26,448 nucleotides of DNA from a virus. Positions 6,557 to 17,702 of this stretch are shown one piece after another. The notes beneath the pieces were generated by a model. The model did no database searches and was not told the DNA's origin. It worked only from the letters and a program-made list of their open reading frames with translations. The position numbers and the translations under genes are program-made. The stretch spans positions 1 through 26,448 of the IMG/VR virus record IMGVR_UViG_3300030329_000227; one strand, 5' to 3'. Position 1 is the first letter of the stretch; each line of letters begins with the position of its first letter.

Positions 6557-6697
6557 ATTATCCTTTAATTTATTGATTAGCTCTTTAAACCTTCTACGCA
6601 TACTTTGAATGTCATATACTTTATTATGGTTTTCATCATAAGTATAATACGCACCGAGTTTAATTTGCTCACTATATATGTTACCTTTTTTACTCAT
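6551..6697 (-). CDS. hypothetical small protein (48 aa), below the ORF-track cutoff
   Basis: MSKKGNIYSEQIKLGAYYTYDENHNKVYDIQSMRRRFKELINKLKDNR. Its ATG overlaps the TGA of the phosphoesterase gene (ATGA at 6694-6697). Confidence 0.45.
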   Translation of the reverse strand: MSKKGNIYSEQIKLGAYYTYDENHNKVYDIQSMRRRFKELINKLKDNR

Positions 6698-7431
6698 AGT
6701 TTCATTAACAAATTTATAGGAAGTTTTCCGTTATTCAAAACGACAGCACATCCTATTGCTGGTTTTTTTCCATACTTAGCATAAGCCATAGCATAGCTTT
6801 CATGATCTATACCACAACCTACCTGCATACCAAATACTCTAAAATTTTGACCTACATAATGCTCACAATATGCTTGTGTGTGTAAATGCCCTTGTACTGT
6901 ATTCATCATATCTGCTCTGCATTTTGTTCTCGCTGTTGAGCCTTCACCATGAATGAATTGTACACCATCTTTAACATACCTTTCTACAAAATTCCAATTA
7001 GGCACTTCTAAAACTTCTTTATAGCTCTTAATCCATTTACTAGGAATAGCAGATGTTTGCGCTTTACGCATCACCATACGATCATGGTTGCCTAAAATTA
7101 TTGTAGCTTTAGGAAAAGCTTTATACCATCTAGCAATACGTTCTATTGATAGCTCTAGTTCATCAGCACCACCCATTCCATCAGCAGAGGTTTCATGATA
7201 TGAGGCGTAATGATTATCTATGATGTCACCTATAAAGACAACTTCATTACAATCAAACTCATCATATTTAGATATGCAAAATTCTAGGTATTTATCAAGA
7301 CAAAAAGGTTCGTGGAGATCACCAATAACTAGAACGTTATTTAAACCATTGCCTTCAGATTGGCGTAATTCTTTTATGAAGTCATGTTCTGACTTTGTTA
7401 GTCTAAGTCTATATTCTTTTAATTGTTTTAT
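6694..7431 (-). CDS. calcineurin-like metallophosphoesterase. The extended N-terminus has no canonical start codon (the track lists only 6694..7176).
   Basis: The frame is open from 7437. It encodes motif I VLVIGDLHEP and motif II VFIGDIIDNH upstream of the first ATG (7176), then GNHD, FIHGEG and QGHLHT. There is no ATG, GTG or TTG in frame between 7437 and 7177. ATA at 7431-7429 overlaps the upstream TAA stop (ATAA). Confidence 0.7.
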   Translation of the reverse strand: MKQLKEYRLRLTKSEHDFIKELRQSEGNGLNNVLVIGDLHEPFCLDKYLEFCISKYDEFDCNEVVFIGDIIDNHYASYHETSADGMGGADELELSIERIARWYKAFPKATIILGNHDRMVMRKAQTSAIPSKWIKSYKEVLEVPNWNFVERYVKDGVQFIHGEGSTARTKCRADMMNTVQGHLHTQAYCEHYVGQNFRVFGMQVGCGIDHESYAMAYAKYGKKPAIGCAVVLNNGKLPINLLMKL

Positions 7432-7808
7432 TTCTTTTTAAACTTTTCAAACGACCTGCCACCGAAGTAAGCTCCTATCACCGTTATCAAAACCAACTGC
7501 AATAAATCAATCCAATTATCTTTAACTTCAAAGTCAATCATTCCTGCTTCAATGAAGATTAGTATAATTGTAGATATAACTAAAAATGCAAGTGTCAAAG
7601 GTCTAATGTTTGCAGGTAACCATCCTGCTTTTGCATCAGCTTCCCATCTTCTAGTAATCTGCTCTTCTGCACTTGCCTTAGCATCTAAAATCATTTGCTT
7701 AAACTTAATCTTTAATTCTTTACGTTCAGCATCAGTTGTTACAACATTATCAACAAGTTTATTAACATCTAAATTAAGATTGCCAAATAAGTTTTTTAAA
7801 AAGTTCAT
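7428..7808 (-). CDS. holin-like membrane protein (GTA-type 3TM holin-like signature)
   Basis: An N-terminal amphipathic region is followed by RRWEADAKAGWLPANIRPLTLAFLVISTIILIF and further hydrophobic segments. The gene is directly downstream of, and coupled to, the endolysin. The family assignment is from memory of PF11351-like sequences. Confidence 0.6.
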   Translation of the reverse strand: MNFLKNLFGNLNLDVNKLVDNVVTTDAERKELKIKFKQMILDAKASAEEQITRRWEADAKAGWLPANIRPLTLAFLVISTIILIFIEAGMIDFEVKDNWIDLLQLVLITVIGAYFGGRSFEKFKKK

Positions 7809-8302
7809 ACGCTATTATAATTAATTACAGTTCTATATTTTGTTTTATTATTTTCATCTTTATAAGCTACAAGCTCTTGACATCTATTGTCATTTATAGT
7901 ATAGCTTAAATGAATCCAGGCAGGGTTTTCAGGATCAATATATTGCGTTGCATCTCCAAATTCTAATATAACTTGGTCAAATGGCAACCCTAATTCTTTT
8001 AGTGCCTGGTATATTTTTATATTGTCCATCTTACCACGTTTAAAGTATTGTAAATCAACTGCTTCATATTTACAATGTTGTGACTTAGTAGAACCACCTA
8101 AAGCTTTGTTTAGCTCAGGAGACCTATAGCCACTTGTAATTCTCAAAGCTCCCAACCTATCACGGAGGACTTGGAGGACTTCAGTGGCTAATAAGGTCAA
8201 TTTATATATACCTTCCTTAGAAGGTTCGTTATCTATTCCTAAACGTAAAGCCGTATTACTTCTAGTAAGTTCTTTTAACGTAAAGTTTTTTGATAAACGC
8301 AT
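7805..8302 (-). CDS. peptidase M15 family endolysin (zinc D-Ala-D-Ala carboxypeptidase/L-Ala-D-Glu peptidase-like)
   Basis: FTLKELTRSNTALRLGIDNEP...ITSGYRSPELNKALGGSTKSQHCKYEAVD...WIHLSY matches the H-x6-D...H metal-ligand pattern of M15 cell-wall peptidases. Confidence 0.8.
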   Translation of the reverse strand: MRLSKNFTLKELTRSNTALRLGIDNEPSKEGIYKLTLLATEVLQVLRDRLGALRITSGYRSPELNKALGGSTKSQHCKYEAVDLQYFKRGKMDNIKIYQALKELGLPFDQVILEFGDATQYIDPENPAWIHLSYTINDNRCQELVAYKDENNKTKYRTVINYNSV

Positions 8303-8643
8303 TATTCAAATTTTGCTAGATAGATTTTGTCTATTTCTTTTTGTATCTCTTTTCTAGTAGCTTCTAGTTGCATCATGATATTAGCTTCAAATCTTATAAC
8401 CTCTTCACCTTCATCAAATATGATAACAGTTGGTACAGAAATAATCTTATATTCTTTTTTTATTTCAGGATTTTCACAAATGATAATGCTATCCAATTTG
8501 CAATCTTTTAAACCTGTTATATCAAAACTATTATCTGTATTCCAACTGCTATTATATTGCACTACTGACACTTGACTAAAAGCAATGCCATAACAAAAAA
8601 ATAAAAAACCCATTAACACTAATAATATATTGCTCATGTTCAT
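8302..8643 (-). CDS. secreted thioredoxin-fold protein lacking the CXXC active site
   Basis: A signal-peptide-like N-terminus (ILLVLMGFLFFCYGIAFSQ). VVQYNSSWNTDN sits where F-x-A-x-WCGPC would be, and ISVPTVIIFDEGEEV is the cis-Pro/beta-strand motif of thioredoxins. Confidence 0.55.
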   Translation of the reverse strand: MNMSNILLVLMGFLFFCYGIAFSQVSVVQYNSSWNTDNSFDITGLKDCKLDSIIICENPEIKKEYKIISVPTVIIFDEGEEVIRFEANIMMQLEATRKEIQKEIDKIYLAKFE

Positions 8644-8921
8644 TTTTTTAATTTGTATAAGCGTTCATCCATTACATCTAGCTTTTGCTCAATAGCATCT
8701 AGCTTCTTACTATTACCCATAATTGTAGTACGCACTAGCTCATCTTTCAGTTCATATTCAGTAGCACTTACCCAATTACCCTTTTCTAATGCTTTTTTAT
8801 TAGCATCAATATCAGCTTTTAAAGTAAAGTAAGTTCCTGAAACAGAAGCAACTAAAGTTACTATAATACCAATGGTTTTTAAGTCTAAAGTAAATTGTGA
8901 CTTTTCGTTTATTATACTCAT
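8640..8921 (-). CDS. type II membrane protein with a coiled-coil ectodomain (i-spanin-like topology)
   Basis: One N-terminal TM segment (IGIIVTLVASVSGTYFTL) followed by heptad-like charged helices. ATGA coupling on both sides. Confidence 0.5.
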   Translation of the reverse strand: MSIINEKSQFTLDLKTIGIIVTLVASVSGTYFTLKADIDANKKALEKGNWVSATEYELKDELVRTTIMGNSKKLDAIEQKLDVMDERLYKLKK

Positions 8922-9109
8922 TTGTTACAAGTTTTTCTGTCCGCTATTCCTTGACTAACTATTAATGCTATTACTACCCAAATGAGATTTGCCATTTCTC
9001 CTTCACTAATACCAACAGATGAACCACAGGTTATAATGATAAAAGTTGCAAAAGCATACCAAAATTTCTTTGATGTTAAAATTGATTTTATTGTATTTAA
9101 AATTTCCAT
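8918..9109 (-). CDS. small two-TM membrane protein (class II holin-like)
   Basis: A 63-aa ORF with FWYAFATFIIITCGSSVGI and MANLIWVVIALIVSQGIA and a charged C-terminus DRKTCNK. Confidence 0.5.
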   Translation of the reverse strand: MEILNTIKSILTSKKFWYAFATFIIITCGSSVGISEGEMANLIWVVIALIVSQGIADRKTCNK

Positions 9110-9110
9110 A

Positions 9111-10133
9111 TTATATAATTATTAAATTAATTCCTAAATTGATTGTGTAATTTTCTCTATCAAAATATCTTAGATATTCTAATTGAGTGTATAACGATAA
9201 TGTCTTAGTTAATTTGTAATTTGTTGTTAAACCAAAATCATAATCGTTTGTTTCTGATCCATATTCAGTTAGTTTATGGTTAACAAAGAAGTAGTTACCA
9301 TAAGCTAGTATAAAGAAATTATCCTGATATATGTAATAAGATAAACCAACAACACCTGAAAGTGTATATTGATTGCCAAGTTCTGCTAGTTTATTTCTAT
9401 TATAATTTGTAGGTATTGTAGCATAGTATTGTTGAAATTGTGCTGTGTTATCAGCAACTATATTGCCGTCTAGTATCCATCTAAAAAATGATTGTTCTAA
9501 CCTGTCTAAATGTCCATTTGTGTTACTGTCTATAAACCAAAATTCTTTTTGATATCCTAAAGCTTCAGCAACAGCTTCAAAATCATCAGAATTAGGAAAG
9601 TCCATTTTAAAGGGATTTAAGCCATAGACAGGGTGATAACGCATGATCCCACCTATAGTAGCACGAAAGTTGCTTAGATCACGTTTAAAGCGTAAATCTA
9701 AGGACTTATACTGTAAATCAACATACCCATTGTTAGATGATTCTATTTTTGTGCTTGTATGTTCTCCTATGTATCTGAACCATATTGTGTGATTGTCATA
9801 CTCCCTGCCAAATTGTTTTACTCTTTCATATTGTAGTAAGTATTCAAATCTATCAACAGGTGATCTTTTTAGACTAGCATTTTTCTCAGTTCCATCATAA
9901 TAAAAACGCGGTTTCTTTTCGTATTTAAAACGGCTAAGTTTCTTTATTCCTATAAAATATCTATAATTAGCTTCATCAGTATTAGTGGTTTCTATTAGCT
10001 CTCCATTAGTATAAGTATATGTTTCTAGTGGTTGTATTGTAGAATTAACAGAGCCTCCTACATAAATAGTAGAATACTTATAGAACTGTCCAAAAGACAG
10101 TAAAGGCAATAATAGAAATAAAAGGCGTATCAT
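9111..10133 (-). CDS. exported protein with outer-membrane beta-barrel-like features
   Basis: The N-terminus MIRLLFLLLPLLSFGQ looks like a signal peptide. The protein is Tyr/Asn-rich, and the C-terminal third has alternating hydrophobic/aromatic strands (YDFGLTTNYKLTKTLSLYTQLEYLRYF...INLGINLIII). Confidence 0.5.
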   Translation of the reverse strand: MIRLLFLLLPLLSFGQFYKYSTIYVGGSVNSTIQPLETYTYTNGELIETTNTDEANYRYFIGIKKLSRFKYEKKPRFYYDGTEKNASLKRSPVDRFEYLLQYERVKQFGREYDNHTIWFRYIGEHTSTKIESSNNGYVDLQYKSLDLRFKRDLSNFRATIGGIMRYHPVYGLNPFKMDFPNSDDFEAVAEALGYQKEFWFIDSNTNGHLDRLEQSFFRWILDGNIVADNTAQFQQYYATIPTNYNRNKLAELGNQYTLSGVVGLSYYIYQDNFFILAYGNYFFVNHKLTEYGSETNDYDFGLTTNYKLTKTLSLYTQLEYLRYFDRENYTINLGINLIII

Positions 10134-10135
10134 TA

Positions 10136-10684
10136 TTAAACAGTTACGATTTGATATGTTATATAAAAATCAGCACTAAATGTAGATGAGTAGTTACCAG
10201 CACTATAAACAAAAAAACCTCTATCTGTTAAACCTCCTGCACCACCTAGAGCAGAGGGAGTTTCATTTGCAGATGCAGCATAGTTTATATCAGCAGTTTT
10301 CCCCTGCATAAAACCTGTAATTCCCGCATAATATGCAGATGCAGTTGAAGTATCATAACCAAAATATAGTGTTACTTTTGCTGTTTGTGTACCTGAAGTA
10401 TAATCTACCATTAGACTTATACTTATTGGTTGTATAAAAAGACCTGCTCCTGGAGCTGCCACTAGCGTTGCAAATGTTCCTGCACCACCTGAACTATCCA
10501 TTGCTTGAAATATACCACTAGCTACACTTACTTTATCAGTTTGTATAACAAATTTGCTATCAACTTTTTTACTTGTACCTGCTGAACTCCCTGTTGTATC
10601 AGAGGTATCTACGACCATTAATTTATCATCACTAGCTAGATTGCTTGTTAATGCTGTCTTGTCGGTTAATCTTTGTCCTGCCAT
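10136..10684 (-). CDS. small tail fibre / receptor-binding-like protein
   Basis: The N-terminus LTDKTALTSNLASDDKLMVVDTSDTTGSSAGTSKKV resembles the conserved N-terminal anchor motif of many phage fibres and spikes. The remainder is Gly/Ser/Thr/Ala-rich. Confidence 0.45.
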   Translation of the reverse strand: MAGQRLTDKTALTSNLASDDKLMVVDTSDTTGSSAGTSKKVDSKFVIQTDKVSVASGIFQAMDSSGGAGTFATLVAAPGAGLFIQPISISLMVDYTSGTQTAKVTLYFGYDTSTASAYYAGITGFMQGKTADINYAASANETPSALGGAGGLTDRGFFVYSAGNYSSTFSADFYITYQIVTV

Positions 10685-11342: not shown

Positions 11343-13505
11343 TTATTTTACTCCTGGATAATGTCCTTGATTAGGCATATTCTCAGGTGCTATTACTGCA
11401 TCTTTTATTCCTCTTGGTTTTGGTGTATAGCTTTTAGGTATATTGTTAACTTTATTATAATCATCTAAGCTTTGACCCTCTTTTAATTCTGTGCCTTCTT
11501 TTAATCTATACAGTATCACCTTCCAAGCGTGTCTACAATATACACCGCCTTTAAATTTAAATAGATCATAAGCACGTCCTTTGTGTCCTAGTTGTTTGTT
11601 AACACCCTCTCTACTCGCTTTATCAATATCTTCAATTCTATAAACAAAACCTGCACTTGCTAATCTCATCATATTTTCACAAAATTTGCGTGTGCCATTG
11701 CCAGGTTTATTAGCTTTTCTACTCTTTTTAATATATTTAAACCGTACCCTATAATAAGATTTGTCTAAGTAACTAAAAGAATCTTCTTTGCTTATTATTT
11801 CATCTGCAAATTTTTCTTTATCTAGTTTTTCAATTAAACTATCTGCCCATCCTTCATAATCTTCAATATGTCCTTCATCTTGTTCATCCACAACTTCCCA
11901 TTTATCAAGGTCTATTTGCTCACCTTCTAAAGCCTCAAATAAGTCATCAAATTCATCATCTGATAAATTAGCTCTAACGCCCTCTATTTCTTTAACTTTT
12001 TTTTTTGCCCATGATTGACCTGCATCACCTCCCCATAACGCCCATGCTATACGCCCTGCACTTGGAAAACCCTCCTCACCAGGACTAAAACCTTCTGCTT
12101 GTTTATCTACTTCATGTCTAGCAAAAAAGCTATTCATTCTACTAATAGTATCTAAAGACAAATCACCATTAATTATAGACCTTGCTCTAGCTACAGCAAT
12201 TTGTGTGCCACCACGTCCATATTCTTTACGCCACTCTAAGCCTTTTTTAGCCTCTTCAATCATGCCTTCTGTAGGTGAAGTATCTATATCTTTTAAATCT
12301 TTAAACTCTTGTTTTAAATTATCTGTATTAATATCTTCTTTTGTAACTCCTTCCTTCTCTTGATCCTCTTCTGATTGTGTCTTAGTAACTTCAAGATCAA
12401 TGAAATCAGCAGGTTTAAGCGACTTAAAGTATAAATCAAGGTTTATATTGTTAACTTTAAATATCTTATCTAAACCTTTTAAAAGTATGTTCTGAAAAGG
12501 AATAATGACAGTATTATTAAATAAGCTGTAAGCATCACGCAATTCATCTGCATTGTTACCTAAACCACCACCTTCTGAACGTATACCAAATAGTATCGGT
12601 GATGTAACTCTATGACCTGCGAGAATCTGATTTACTGCCTGTTTAGACATACCTTCCCACGCACTCTGTGCATCATTCATTTGTATAGGTTCTATGATTG
12701 GTTGTGTTTCTTTACCATCATTAAAGGTTATAAGTATCTTTCCTGCGTTTCCACTACCTGAGAACTTCTGGTTTAATTGTCTTTCTATAGTGCGTCTTTC
12801 CTCTTCTGTAGGTACTCCGTTAGAGAATCCAACGTGCATACTAGGTGTCATTCCTGATGTTATATTAGATAAATGAAATTGAGCTATCTCTAACTCCATT
12901 TGAATCCAATCTGTTGCTGCAACATAATCAGGTGCAAAGCCATAAAATAAAGCAGGGTTTTTATCTCTAATCATTAAGATTTGACTAGCATGAGTTCTAT
13001 CTTTTGTGCTAAATGCTTTATAGGGTCTTGGTTTATATTCTGCTTTTTTACTTTTTGCCCAATTAGCAGAGTAATAATAAGTATCTATTTCACCATCTAT
13101 CATTTTACCTGAACGTATATATTGTGCAGGTATATGGTTCATCTTAGCTATCTTACTACGATCTCTTGACCATATTACATTTACATAACACCCCCCAAAT
13201 AGCTTTAAATCCATTGCAAGGTCTTTTAAGACATCATCATCAGAATTGTGTAATAATTCATTTAAACGTAAATATGATTCTTTAGTATCTGTATTTTCAT
13301 CAACATTAGTTGCTGCCAAACCTTCACCATAAATCATTGCTCCTATTGACTTAATTAAAGCACCATTGATAGCACTTCCTAAGAATAGCTCTAGCAAATA
13401 ATTAGGATATAGGTTGTCTTCACCAAAACTAACCCAATCATGTCTTGGATCTTCTACTAAGTGAGGTATGTTATAATGTGATAATTTTATTAAATCTAAA
13501 TTCAT
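11343..13505 (-). CDS. portal protein fused to a MuF/SPP1-gp7-like minor head protein domain
   Basis: The N-terminus has a portal-like pattern (DWVSFGEDNLYPNYLLELFLGSAINGALIKSIGAMIYGEGL). After an acidic linker, the C-terminus has TRKFCENMM...GFVYRIEDI...GGVYCRHAWKVILY, resembling the MuF C...C...H-x-CRC region. At 720 aa it is oversized for a portal alone. Confidence 0.7.
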   Translation of the reverse strand: MNLDLIKLSHYNIPHLVEDPRHDWVSFGEDNLYPNYLLELFLGSAINGALIKSIGAMIYGEGLAATNVDENTDTKESYLRLNELLHNSDDDVLKDLAMDLKLFGGCYVNVIWSRDRSKIAKMNHIPAQYIRSGKMIDGEIDTYYYSANWAKSKKAEYKPRPYKAFSTKDRTHASQILMIRDKNPALFYGFAPDYVAATDWIQMELEIAQFHLSNITSGMTPSMHVGFSNGVPTEEERRTIERQLNQKFSGSGNAGKILITFNDGKETQPIIEPIQMNDAQSAWEGMSKQAVNQILAGHRVTSPILFGIRSEGGGLGNNADELRDAYSLFNNTVIIPFQNILLKGLDKIFKVNNINLDLYFKSLKPADFIDLEVTKTQSEEDQEKEGVTKEDINTDNLKQEFKDLKDIDTSPTEGMIEEAKKGLEWRKEYGRGGTQIAVARARSIINGDLSLDTISRMNSFFARHEVDKQAEGFSPGEEGFPSAGRIAWALWGGDAGQSWAKKKVKEIEGVRANLSDDEFDDLFEALEGEQIDLDKWEVVDEQDEGHIEDYEGWADSLIEKLDKEKFADEIISKEDSFSYLDKSYYRVRFKYIKKSRKANKPGNGTRKFCENMMRLASAGFVYRIEDIDKASREGVNKQLGHKGRAYDLFKFKGGVYCRHAWKVILYRLKEGTELKEGQSLDDYNKVNNIPKSYTPKPRGIKDAVIAPENMPNQGHYPGVK

Positions 13506-16703: not shown

Positions 16704-17702
16704 TTAGTATTTTACAGTTCTATTTTTGATAGCAGAACATACTTTAGCAGCAGTTTCTTTATTGCCATATTGTTTAATTTGATCCCTCATGCAATCATCC
16801 CAAGAATACTTTAACATTGCTTTTCTTTTTGCATAAGCAACGTATTCAAGCATCTTATACCTTTTTTTGTATTTACGCTTTCCTTTCTTAGTATATAGCT
16901 CCTCTTTCATTGTAGCTGATGAGTGATCTGCACAAGGCATATATAGTTTTTCACCATCTACTGTGTGTGGATGTGATCCTTCACAACCTTTAAACATCTC
17001 TGCGTATATTTCAGCTTCCTCTCTAGTTCTAAATAAAGGCTCACCATCTAAAGCTCCTACAGGATTTAATTCATTCTCTAAAATGATGTTTTTAATTTTA
17101 CCTAGCATAATGTCATCAGGACAATCTTCACACACCTCATCTAGTATATCTTTATTCCTAGATGCTTCTATTAGTTTATCTGTAAAGTAACCTTCTATAC
17201 TAAAACCTCTAACTTCTTTATTCTTAATCTTTTCCCAAATCTCAGGATTGTTTTCTGCACTTACTTGTACAAACCAAGTACCAACAGGCATATTCTTAAA
17301 TCCATACATATTAGATTTATCAAATTTTTCATCTTCTTTAATCCACGATTCTACAACAGTTAAACCCTTTATTGGCTCTTTGTGTTCAAGAGTGTGGTTA
17401 TTGTTGTTTAAACTTGACATAAATAGGCTCTGTGCCTGTTTAATAGTTTCTTTAGTAAAGAATACATCATACTCTTCGTTAGTATCTTTATCTAGTCTAG
17501 GTATACGTTTTTCAGGAATAAGAACAGCACCAATTAATTGCTTTTGCTCTTCATCTATTTTTGCTAGACTCAGAAAGTCCTGATTAAAGAACACAAAGTT
17601 TTCCTCTATTGCAGGAAATTTGACTACGCTGATTGCGTCAACGCCAAAGAAATCTGCTGTTTCATCTATGATTAACTCTATTAGTTTTCGTTTTTTATCC
17701 AT
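16704..17702 (-). CDS. prohead protease, XkdF-like (Peptidase_S78_2-type) with a C-terminal Cys/His-rich extension
   Basis: VSVVKFPAIEENFVFF...LIGAVLIPEKRI...VFFTKETIKQAQSLFM...HTLEHK...VVESWI...GTWFVQVSAENNPEIWEKIKNKEVRGFSIEGYF follows the XkdF pattern. The C-terminus YSWDDCMRDQIKQYGNKETAAKVCSAIKNR is also common in such proteins. Confidence 0.7.
   Translation of the reverse strand: MDKKRKLIELIIDETADFFGVDAISVVKFPAIEENFVFFNQDFLSLAKIDEEQKQLIGAVLIPEKRIPRLDKDTNEEYDVFFTKETIKQAQSLFMSSLNNNNHTLEHKEPIKGLTVVESWIKEDEKFDKSNMYGFKNMPVGTWFVQVSAENNPEIWEKIKNKEVRGFSIEGYFTDKLIEASRNKDILDEVCEDCPDDIMLGKIKNIILENELNPVGALDGEPLFRTREEAEIYAEMFKGCEGSHPHTVDGEKLYMPCADHSSATMKEELYTKKGKRKYKKRYKMLEYVAYAKRKAMLKYSWDDCMRDQIKQYGNKETAAKVCSAIKNRTVKY

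Follow-up and report, generated by a model that had tools for sequence, protein, structure and literature searches.

A conserved outer-membrane barrel, thioredoxin-like and inner-membrane protein module in the lysis operon of an uncultured marine phage, a candidate for the outer-membrane step of lysis

How phages without spanins open the outer membrane of their hosts is an open question, and to our knowledge the phiKT 'disruptin' peptide is the sole alternative to a spanin that has been worked out. A candidate defined by its sequence, and with clear partners, is found in an uncultured virus (IMG/VR record IMGVR_UViG_3300030329_000227), of which positions 1 to 26,448, a stretch of 26.4 kb referred to below as the window, were analysed. 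Six consecutive minus-strand genes at positions 7428–10133 had been singled out in a preliminary description of this DNA as an extended lysis cassette, and all six open reading frames (ORFs) were found exactly there. Three of them code for proteins of 340, 113 and 93 amino acids (aa), which are predicted to reside in outer membrane, periplasm and inner membrane, respectively. Comparison of sequences and gene order indicates that the genes for this barrel, this thioredoxin (Trx)-like protein and this inner-membrane protein are a conserved, phage-restricted and co-inherited module tied to lysis genes. With less than even confidence, we infer that the trio would form a trans-envelope, spanin-like complex carrying out the outer-membrane step of lysis, the barrel acting as outer-membrane spanin (o-spanin) or outer-membrane anchor.

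Kongari et al. (2018) surveyed 677 genomes, most of them from phages of Gram-negative hosts, and recognised no spanin in about 13%; the 91 spanin-less genomes include Bacteroides and Croceibacter phages (PMC6139136). The same authors hypothesised that "an OMP could act as an o-spanin" (OMP, outer-membrane protein; PMC6139136), and no reported example of this was found in the literature. The premise of the preliminary description that Bacteroidota phages lack spanins is too broad, since candidate spanins are known from the Bacteroides phage B40-8 and from some phages of P. gingivalis (PMC6139136, PMC10367356). No description of the families of the barrel, the Trx-like and the 93-aa protein was found in the literature on spanins and beta-barrels, flavobacterial phage lysis, spanin-less phages and the Q-rule, and PHROGs holds nothing for the barrel and weak matches only for the other two. 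Phage-encoded OMPs as a class and lysis cassettes are already known, while the lysis-linked module of barrel, 93-aa and Trx-like protein is new.

The region is the late lysis operon of the phage. The six-gene block is continuous with the gene of a putative fibre protein of 182 aa upstream, and with genes named by the length of their products, the 63/93, 93/113 and 165/126 junctions are ATGA-type overlaps of 4 nucleotides (nt), 113 and 165 overlap by 1 nt, and spacers of 1–2 nt separate 182 from 340 and 340 from 63. Since the junctions overlap or are 1–2 nt apart, there is no room for separate internal promoters, and the stop/start coupling with the upstream structural gene and with the downstream endolysin and holin implies late co-expression. 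A sigma-70 promoter and terminator scan, which is not suited to Bacteroidota promoters, gave background levels. Each of the six proteins has dozens to hundreds of homologues in conserved synteny, so the six ORFs are real genes and not chance ones.

The 340-aa protein (9111–10133, minus strand) is predicted to be an exported outer-membrane beta-barrel from its signal peptide, AlphaFold2 model, Foldseek matches and conservation. The signal peptide covers residues 1–15, with predicted cleavage before Q16, and a Q follows the h-region in 121 of the 124 unique members of the family. In the model (predicted local distance difference test score, pLDDT, 77; predicted template modelling score, pTM, 0.71), about 12 long antiparallel strands span the whole protein and not just the C-terminus, where barrel-like strands had at first been noticed; structure prediction, which had been set as a test of the idea, does model the protein as an outer-membrane barrel. 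An 85-residue helix/hairpin insert at 169–253 is conserved and predicted to face outwards, and a basic segment at 67–95 is modelled with low confidence; the most conserved stretch of the family (around 55–76) runs from strand 2 into the start of this basic segment. The C-terminus is GxxΦxΦ-like, with an invariant G334 and a last residue that is F in 68, I in 31 and L in 16 members (115 of 124 unique members), so that the predicted protein carries the Sec signal peptide, the antiparallel strands and the C-terminal beta-signal of outer-membrane beta-barrels.

All of the top 50 Foldseek matches in the PDB are outer-membrane barrels, mostly twelve-stranded (PorB, FapF, NanC, autotransporter beta-domains, OmpG, KdgM and COG4313; E 1e-6 to 1e-4), with TM-scores of only 0.2–0.55. 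In BFVD, a homologue of the protein itself (58% identical) is followed by scattered uncharacterised phage OMPs. The twelve-stranded barrels FapF, NanC/KdgM, the autotransporter beta-domains and COG4313 are the best structural matches and have a similar number of strands to the model, at sequence identities of 10% or less, whereas the 85-aa insert and the basic segment 67–95 have no counterpart in them and no family hidden Markov model (HMM) matches. The Porin_4 match is weak (14.7 bits against a cut-off of 27, E 0.028) and limited to the C-terminal 93 residues; no Ail_Lom or porin family match over threshold was obtained, nor any NCBIfam or PHROG match. A virion role for the modelled barrel is very unlikely because of its signal peptide and fold. 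An enzymatic barrel of the OMPLA, LpxR or PagL kind was considered and rejected, as there is no His among the invariant or nearly invariant residues and the 'SSNNG' sequence is not conserved in divergent members. The kilobase holding the barrel gene (9001–10000) has a GC skew of about -0.04, compared to about -0.2 in the neighbouring genes, with the same GC content, which may only mirror a composition rich in Tyr, Asn and Phe.

The 113-aa protein (8302–8643, minus strand) is predicted to be a periplasmic, redox-dead member of the thioredoxin fold. A secreted thioredoxin-fold protein without CXXC had been proposed for this gene, and the proposal is borne out by the family profile, which, built from 24 diverse members, matches PDB thioredoxins with E values of 1e-15 to 1e-7. 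In this alignment WCGPC corresponds to W-N-x-x-N, with N35, N38 and the cis-Pro P71 invariant in the 24 members; the fold and its cis-Pro loop are thus present and the CXXC redox-active site is not. The single sequence matches TIGR01068 at 1e-4, under the cut-off, and the Pfam match is also under the cut-off. A signal peptide with Q after the h-region is found in 109 of 110 family members, and a strict lipobox in 3 of 110, the window protein not among them. The AlphaFold2 model, which came from a shallow alignment (pLDDT 52), was not used for a fold search. E. coli thioredoxin serves as processivity factor of the T7 DNA polymerase and in f1 assembly. The window protein would share with it a thioredoxin fold used for binding and not for redox chemistry, and differs in being phage-encoded, predicted to be exported to the periplasm, placed in a lysis cassette, and in having both active-site Cys replaced by invariant Asn.

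The 93-aa protein ('cc93'; 8640–8921, minus strand) is predicted from hydrophobicity and from its homologues to be a bitopic inner-membrane protein, oriented N-in with one transmembrane (TM) segment at about 16–34 and a 59-aa periplasmic tail. The N-terminal TM segment noted at the outset is thus upheld, and the coiled coil noted with it is a helical or coiled-coil character read from the sequence alone. The orientation agrees with the positive-inside rule, as 100 of 110 members have more positive charge on the N-terminal than on the C-terminal flank of the segment; the periplasmic tail is 55–84 aa long in the family, and Cys is found in just 4 of 110 members. The topology is that of an inner-membrane spanin (i-spanin), that is type II with one N-terminal TM segment and a helical-reading periplasmic domain. 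The homologues fall into 502 clusters, and 120 listed clusters are 75–97% identical to the window protein. There is no Pfam match and PHROG matches are weak; one of the 14 family members scanned matches PHROG 10340, holin/anti-holin, at 7.9e-6.

Do the three genes belong together? Close homologues of the barrel number 85 and stem exclusively from marine metagenomes; a profile search extends the family to 237 representatives (50% clustering), among them full-length members with as little as 27% identity. IMG/VR scans returned 50 close and at least 551 divergent barrel loci on contigs of 28–95 kb, amounting to at least 600 uncultured marine viral contigs. No close barrel relative was found in the GTDB species genomes, and a scan with divergent barrels found 12 loci there, mostly on short or taxonomically implausible contigs of metagenome-assembled genomes (Pelagibacter, Nitrosopelagicus, Woesearchaeota). 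A cellular origin of the barrel was rejected, as these loci mostly look like mis-binned phage DNA. When 152 fetched loci were scanned with HMMs built from the window proteins, the barrel was matched in 139 loci, the 93-aa protein in 126, the Trx-like protein in 120, the 126-aa holin in 81, the M15 peptidase in 75 and the 63-aa protein in 50. A 93-aa homologue accompanies the barrel in 126 of 139 loci and a Trx-like homologue in 120 of 139, usually in the order barrel, (small TM protein), 93-aa, Trx. The tightest link is that of the 93-aa and Trx-like genes, the former lying almost always immediately upstream of the latter.

The barrel is the loosest member of the three: in loci L105 and L108 the 93-aa/Trx pair lies 7 kb off on the other strand, and some barrels stand alone. 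This, together with a junction between fibre and lysis genes that is variable, extra secreted or nuclease genes being inserted there in many phages, and with the weak Porin_4 match (0.028), would fit a set of unrelated passengers, with the barrel as a porin-like moron or auxiliary gene, separate roles for the Trx-like and the 93-aa protein, and an adjacency due only to the usual junction of tail fibre and lysis genes, where accessory genes often collect. We regard this as quite improbable, given that the proteins co-occur in 120–126 of 139 loci, in phages of 28–95 kb with different backbones, and that in divergent lineages the barrel and 93-aa genes abut directly, the barrel stop lying 2–6 nt from the 93-aa start. 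All three proteins are also well conserved in the family, which argues for selection on a shared function.

At that junction, 69 loci, mostly from relatives of 40–95 kb, carry an extra secreted protein of about 160–260 aa, which begins 2–3 nt after the barrel (for instance L085 9047–9736). Its signal peptide follows the Q-rule, its N-terminal module is rich in Cys and contains a CxDGSDE motif like those of low-density lipoprotein (LDL)-receptor class A repeats, and there is a very acidic, repetitive region of D/E/V/Y/I. The protein has no Pfam match and is absent from the window phage.

The link of the module to lysis was assessed in the 74 loci having at least 3 kb on both sides. An endolysin-like gene lies within 3 kb of the module in 68 of these (M15 in 47, DUF5675 in 12 and phrog_33083-type in 9), and a holin-like gene is found within the same distance in 61. 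The six loci without an endolysin-like gene all have a holin-like gene nearby, and in one of them an M15 gene is interrupted by Ns. Judging by these neighbours, at least three endolysin-like families have been exchanged next to the module, DUF5675 being a proposed C82-like lysin (2026 preprint); sequence searches of the PDB with the DUF5675 and phrog_33083-type neighbours gave no match. The upstream backbone varies as well, from the portal-proximal block of the window to a siphovirus tail module with a tape-measure-sized gene of 858 aa in L008 and to fibres of 2000 aa elsewhere, and the module stays with the lysis genes throughout. As the loci are phylogenetically related, the counts are not independent events, and it is the three endolysin-like families and several backbones that indicate repeated retention. 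The synteny with lysis genes, whose loss in relatives would have spoken against the idea, thus survives across different backbones.

Two observations on these neighbourhoods can be added. The DUF5675 protein or phrog_33083-type endolysin can stand directly upstream of the barrel (e.g. L101 7450–7941; L091 6752–7360), and in L008 a 31-aa ORF with two CxxC pairs, reminiscent of a zinc ribbon, is found between the Trx-like gene and the M15 endolysin (11847–11942).

Phage-encoded outer-membrane proteins are known in receptor-related roles, for example Lom and Bor of lambda, the porin Lc of PA-2, NmpC of DLP12 beside lysis genes, and Llp and Cor of T5. A role in exclusion or progeny protection, in which the barrel and its partners would mask or replace a receptor against superinfecting phages or adsorption to debris, must accordingly be weighed, and such precedents speak for it, as do the many uncharacterised phage OMP barrels in BFVD, the place of the barrel gene directly after a putative tail fibre gene, as for lom in lambda, and the conserved insert, which is probably surface-exposed and contains a DxNxNGxxD motif like that of calcium sites. 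A literature search on nmpC/DLP12 porins next to lysis genes returned no paper of direct relevance. What is shared with Lom, Bor, Lc and NmpC is a phage-encoded, exported outer-membrane protein at the fibre/lysis junction, whereas the window barrel has no homology to them (no Ail/Lom or porin family match), no intergenic space for a promoter of its own and no sign of a temperate lifestyle or prophage expression beside it, and its gene is coupled to those of two other envelope proteins. In the 26.4-kb window neither an integrase nor a lysogeny module was seen, about 2–5 kb of the phage genome lying outside it. Known exclusion proteins are the products of single genes, usually expressed early or from the prophage under their own promoter, and not of three coupled genes in a late operon; receptor masking needs less machinery than an inner-membrane coiled-coil protein and a periplasmic adaptor; and the linkage is to endolysins and holins, with three endolysin-like families. 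We consider exclusion a live rival, though less likely than the spanin-like complex.

The preliminary description had found no lipoprotein ORF within the 93-aa gene or next to it; the search was extended to all six frames of the whole window with any start codon, and no strict lipobox was found, so that both a canonical o-spanin and a unimolecular spanin (u-spanin) are absent from it. The location in a lysis cassette that characterises two-component spanins is present and the o-spanin with its lipobox is not. With a relaxed lipobox the sole match is IITC in the 63-aa protein, whose Cys is not conserved in relatives, and which leaves about 12 residues up to the second TM segment, unlike a unimolecular spanin of the T1 gp11 type. 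A lipoprotein reading of the 63-aa and 113-aa proteins was rejected, as their Cys residues are not conserved.

In a different marine phage group, a 93-aa homologue is followed by the M15 gene and then by a lipobox protein of 132–164 aa (LSSC or LSGC), with neither barrel nor Trx-like gene; of the 10 loci that continue beyond the M15 gene, 8 have this layout, which looks like that of a separated two-component spanin. An exported HMA-domain protein (PF00403, 2.2e-8; GLTCSMC) is often inserted between the 93-aa homologue and the M15 gene. L235, a close relative of this group, has a second 93-aa-like gene and a Trx-like gene at the position of the lipoprotein. Relatives of the 93-aa protein would thus pair with either a lipoprotein or a second 93-aa-like/Trx pair in the same slot, which lends support to a spanin-like role. 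The lipoproteins of the group (L234, L237–L239, L241–L243 and L246) lie about 650–2200 nt downstream of the 93-aa homologue and are rich in Tyr, Arg and His.

In the spanin-like reading, the three proteins would accumulate during late expression and connect across the periplasm, the tail of the 93-aa protein binding the Trx-like adaptor, and the adaptor docking on the conserved basic stretch of the barrel at the end of strand 2, at what may be a periplasmic turn. Once the holin fires and the endolysin clears the peptidoglycan mesh, the complex would breach or destabilise the outer membrane. The barrel, together with the adaptor, would then replace the lipoprotein o-spanin, and the whole would be the counterpart of a two-component spanin. 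[quoted passage not shown] In a less conventional variant, the trio may act as a sensor linking what happens at the cell surface to the triggering of the holin.

Several points weigh against the spanin-like complex. With 59 aa, the periplasmic tail of the 93-aa protein falls far short of the periplasmic domains of known i-spanins, a rigid barrel is unlikely to serve as an anchor for membrane fusion, and the conserved 85-aa insert of the barrel (169–253), predicted to face outwards, would not be needed by a pure periplasmic tether. The barrels of L169, L173 and L202 have no 93-aa or Trx gene nearby, and in L169 (1308–1499) a Pro-rich lipoprotein of 63 aa, beginning with MKYVAALWVLLIVGC and reminiscent of Rz1, is found two genes upstream of the barrel. 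Among 50,697 phage records, searched by megablast with the region and by tblastn with the window barrel, two of its divergent relatives and three variants of the 93-aa protein, there was no isolate carrying the module. In a scan that started from the holin family, just 9–12 of 80 loci had the module, and near the holin no candidate lipoprotein was seen in 31 of the 33 loci that have a holin of the 126-aa family and lack the module, which suggests that the module does not simply alternate with a spanin; most of the holin-sharing contigs belong to a different phage group with GroEL/GroES-like genes (named from sequence only), which has neither module nor lipoprotein. Finally, in eight loci (L163 and L250–L256) the 93-aa homologue is immediately upstream of a 126-aa-type holin and M15, and the 2–6 kb covered on each side contain neither a barrel nor a Trx-like protein nor a lipoprotein, a layout that makes no sense for an i-spanin without an outer-membrane partner unless this partner lies further away.

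These eight loci, in which the 93-aa gene overlaps the start of the holin gene, fit a role at the level of the holin at least as well as a spanin. In such a control of lysis timing, the 93-aa protein would be a holin partner or antiholin, to which the Trx-like protein and the barrel feed an envelope signal (superinfection or the status of the outer membrane) that delays or triggers the holin. A 93-aa homologue adjoins a holin-like gene in every configuration seen, its size and topology (about 90–100 aa, one N-terminal TM segment, helical-reading tail) are like those of T4 RI, one family member has the PHROG 10340 match given above, and a role as sensor would agree with the conserved insert of the barrel, which is predicted to face outwards. 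Lcc6 of LambdaSo, a small TM protein of unknown class, is essential at the holin step (bioRxiv 10.1101/2024.01.23.576932), and shows that such proteins can be required there. Nevertheless, the PHROG link is a single weak match among 14 members, there is no significant sequence similarity to RI or Lcc6 beyond the shared small size, single N-terminal TM segment, helical-reading tail and adjacency to a holin, and neither holin-like protein of the window has a sizeable periplasmic domain to offer to an RI-like partner. No antiholin system is known to include an outer-membrane barrel, and an association with such a barrel and a thioredoxin fold is not known for T4 RI or Lcc6; moreover, the swap of lipoprotein for Trx-like protein in relatives points to a role directed at the outer membrane. 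Timing control is a live rival too, about as likely as exclusion and less so than the spanin-like complex.

Two-component spanins are needed to disrupt the outer membrane, and in their absence cells stop at a spherical stage. With these spanins (Rz/Rz1 of lambda; the separated type of B40-8), the spanin-like complex would share the place in the lysis cassette, late expression together with holin and endolysin, an inner-membrane protein oriented N-in/C-out whose periplasmic domain is helical-reading, and a partner targeted to the outer membrane, and 93-aa homologues in sister phages do pair with a canonical lipoprotein. It differs in that the partner is a 340-aa barrel, predicted to be inserted by the beta-barrel assembly machinery (BAM), and no small lipoprotein sorted by Lol; in the third, soluble component with a thioredoxin fold; in a tail of only about 59 aa; and in the lack of Cys in the 93-aa protein for the intermolecular disulfides typical of Rz/Rz1. 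The trio has no sequence similarity to any spanin family. There is a realistic chance that the locus holds the first OMP-based spanin; that it is the first non-lipoprotein, three-part 'spanin', which completes lysis in a large group of marine Bacteroidota phages with a global distribution, seems possible but doubtful. If true, a new class of lysis proteins would be defined, the annotation of marine flavobacterial phages would improve, and it would mean a new use of the thioredoxin fold and the exploitation of the host BAM pathway by phages for lysis. Were the trio a timing sensor or an exclusion system instead, it would still be an undescribed phage envelope system spanning three compartments.

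The remaining genes of the operon, interleaved with those of the three envelope proteins, code for an endolysin and two holin-like membrane proteins. The M15 peptidase endolysin recognised earlier (165 aa, 7805–8302, minus strand; VanY/L-Ala-D-Glu-type) is confirmed by matches to Pfam (PF08291, Peptidase_M15_3, 2.8e-16, 60 bits against a cut-off of 23.2) and to the endolysin family phrog_894 (4.3e-31), and its zinc-ligand motif of the SxHxxGxAxD type reads SQHCKYEAVD. A hydrophobicity scan found no TM, signal-anchor-release (SAR) or signal segment in it; the enzyme would thus be cytoplasmic and needs a hole-forming holin. The 126-aa protein (7428–7808, minus strand), to which a GTA-type holin signature had been attributed, has an N-terminal soluble part of 65 aa and matches the holin family phrog_3427 at 1.6e-22, and its homologues are annotated as holins in Nonlabens and Vibrio phages. 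Pfam GTA_holin_3TM (PF11351) matches three of four family members, 7e-5 at best, and not the window protein itself, in which two clear C-terminal TM segments (about 68–90 and 99–117), not three, were seen in a hydrophobicity scan. The 63-aa protein (8918–9109, minus strand) retains its description as a two-TM holin-like protein, of class II or pinholin-like, with hydrophobic segments at about 18–35 and 39–58 and a weak match to the holin family PHROG 9987 (E 1e-3); most loci other than the 50 with a homologue have another TM protein of 60–78 aa in the same slot.

The window has a phage genome layout, with the structural genes (portal, S78 protease, virion proteins) running from 26.2 kb down to 10.1 kb, followed by the lysis cassette, a metallophosphoesterase, a short plus-strand island and replication, ParB, HNH and small-terminase genes. 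At the DNA level nothing similar was found by megablast in the 50,697 GenBank phage records. According to the portal protein, the nearest isolates are Nonlabens phages P12024S/L (33% identity); portal and holin are the only window proteins that reach these phages, and both phages lack the module. The source is an uncultured marine phage whose host is probably a Bacteroidota bacterium and likely a marine flavobacterium. The best evidence for a Bacteroidota host here is the Gln after the h-region of the signal peptides in the barrels and Trx-like proteins (counts above) and in 65 of 65 copies of the extra secreted protein, as this corresponds to the Bacteroidetes 'Q-rule' for substrates of signal peptidase I (PMC5837995, PMC10653852).

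On the upstream side, the putative tail fibre or virion protein of 182 aa (10136–10684, minus strand) is encoded by the last structural gene, which abuts the barrel gene. A match to phrog_19691, a virion structural protein family, covers its first 73 residues (9e-5), and a homologue is found in 80 loci, mostly of relatives of about 30 kb, where it is directly upstream of the barrel. On the downstream side, the metallophosphoesterase (6694–7431, minus strand) probably has a coding sequence starting at the conserved ATA 7431–7429, which overlaps the holin stop as ATAA. Read from the first ATG, the ORF has 160 aa and a score of 15.1 bits, under the Pfam Metallophos cut-off of 21.5, while the in-frame upstream extension raises the score to 34 bits and adds the GDLH motif; no ATG, GTG or TTG is found upstream of this catalytic motif (window 6694–7442, minus strand), and the ATA codon and the extension are kept in relatives. 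Alternatively, a -1 slip on T_AAA_AAG (7440–7434) at the end of the holin gene reaches the same frame.

In the portal-like protein (720 aa, 11343–13505, minus strand), the Pfam portal domain spans only residues 90–324, and within residues 399–556 or thereabouts lies a segment of about 100–150 aa that is 53–67% identical to pieces of proteins from unrelated phages (Roseobacter CRP phages, Synechococcus S-CBS1/3, Vibrio phages, Halorubrum virus HRTV-4 and Pseudomonas PaBG). The matching proteins are annotated inconsistently as major capsid, coil-containing, DNA-binding or capsid maturation protease, and relatives of the window phage have a shorter portal of 633 aa. The S78 prohead protease (16704–17702, minus strand) has a C-terminal match to DUF3721 (PF12518) of 27.6 bits, just over the cut-off.

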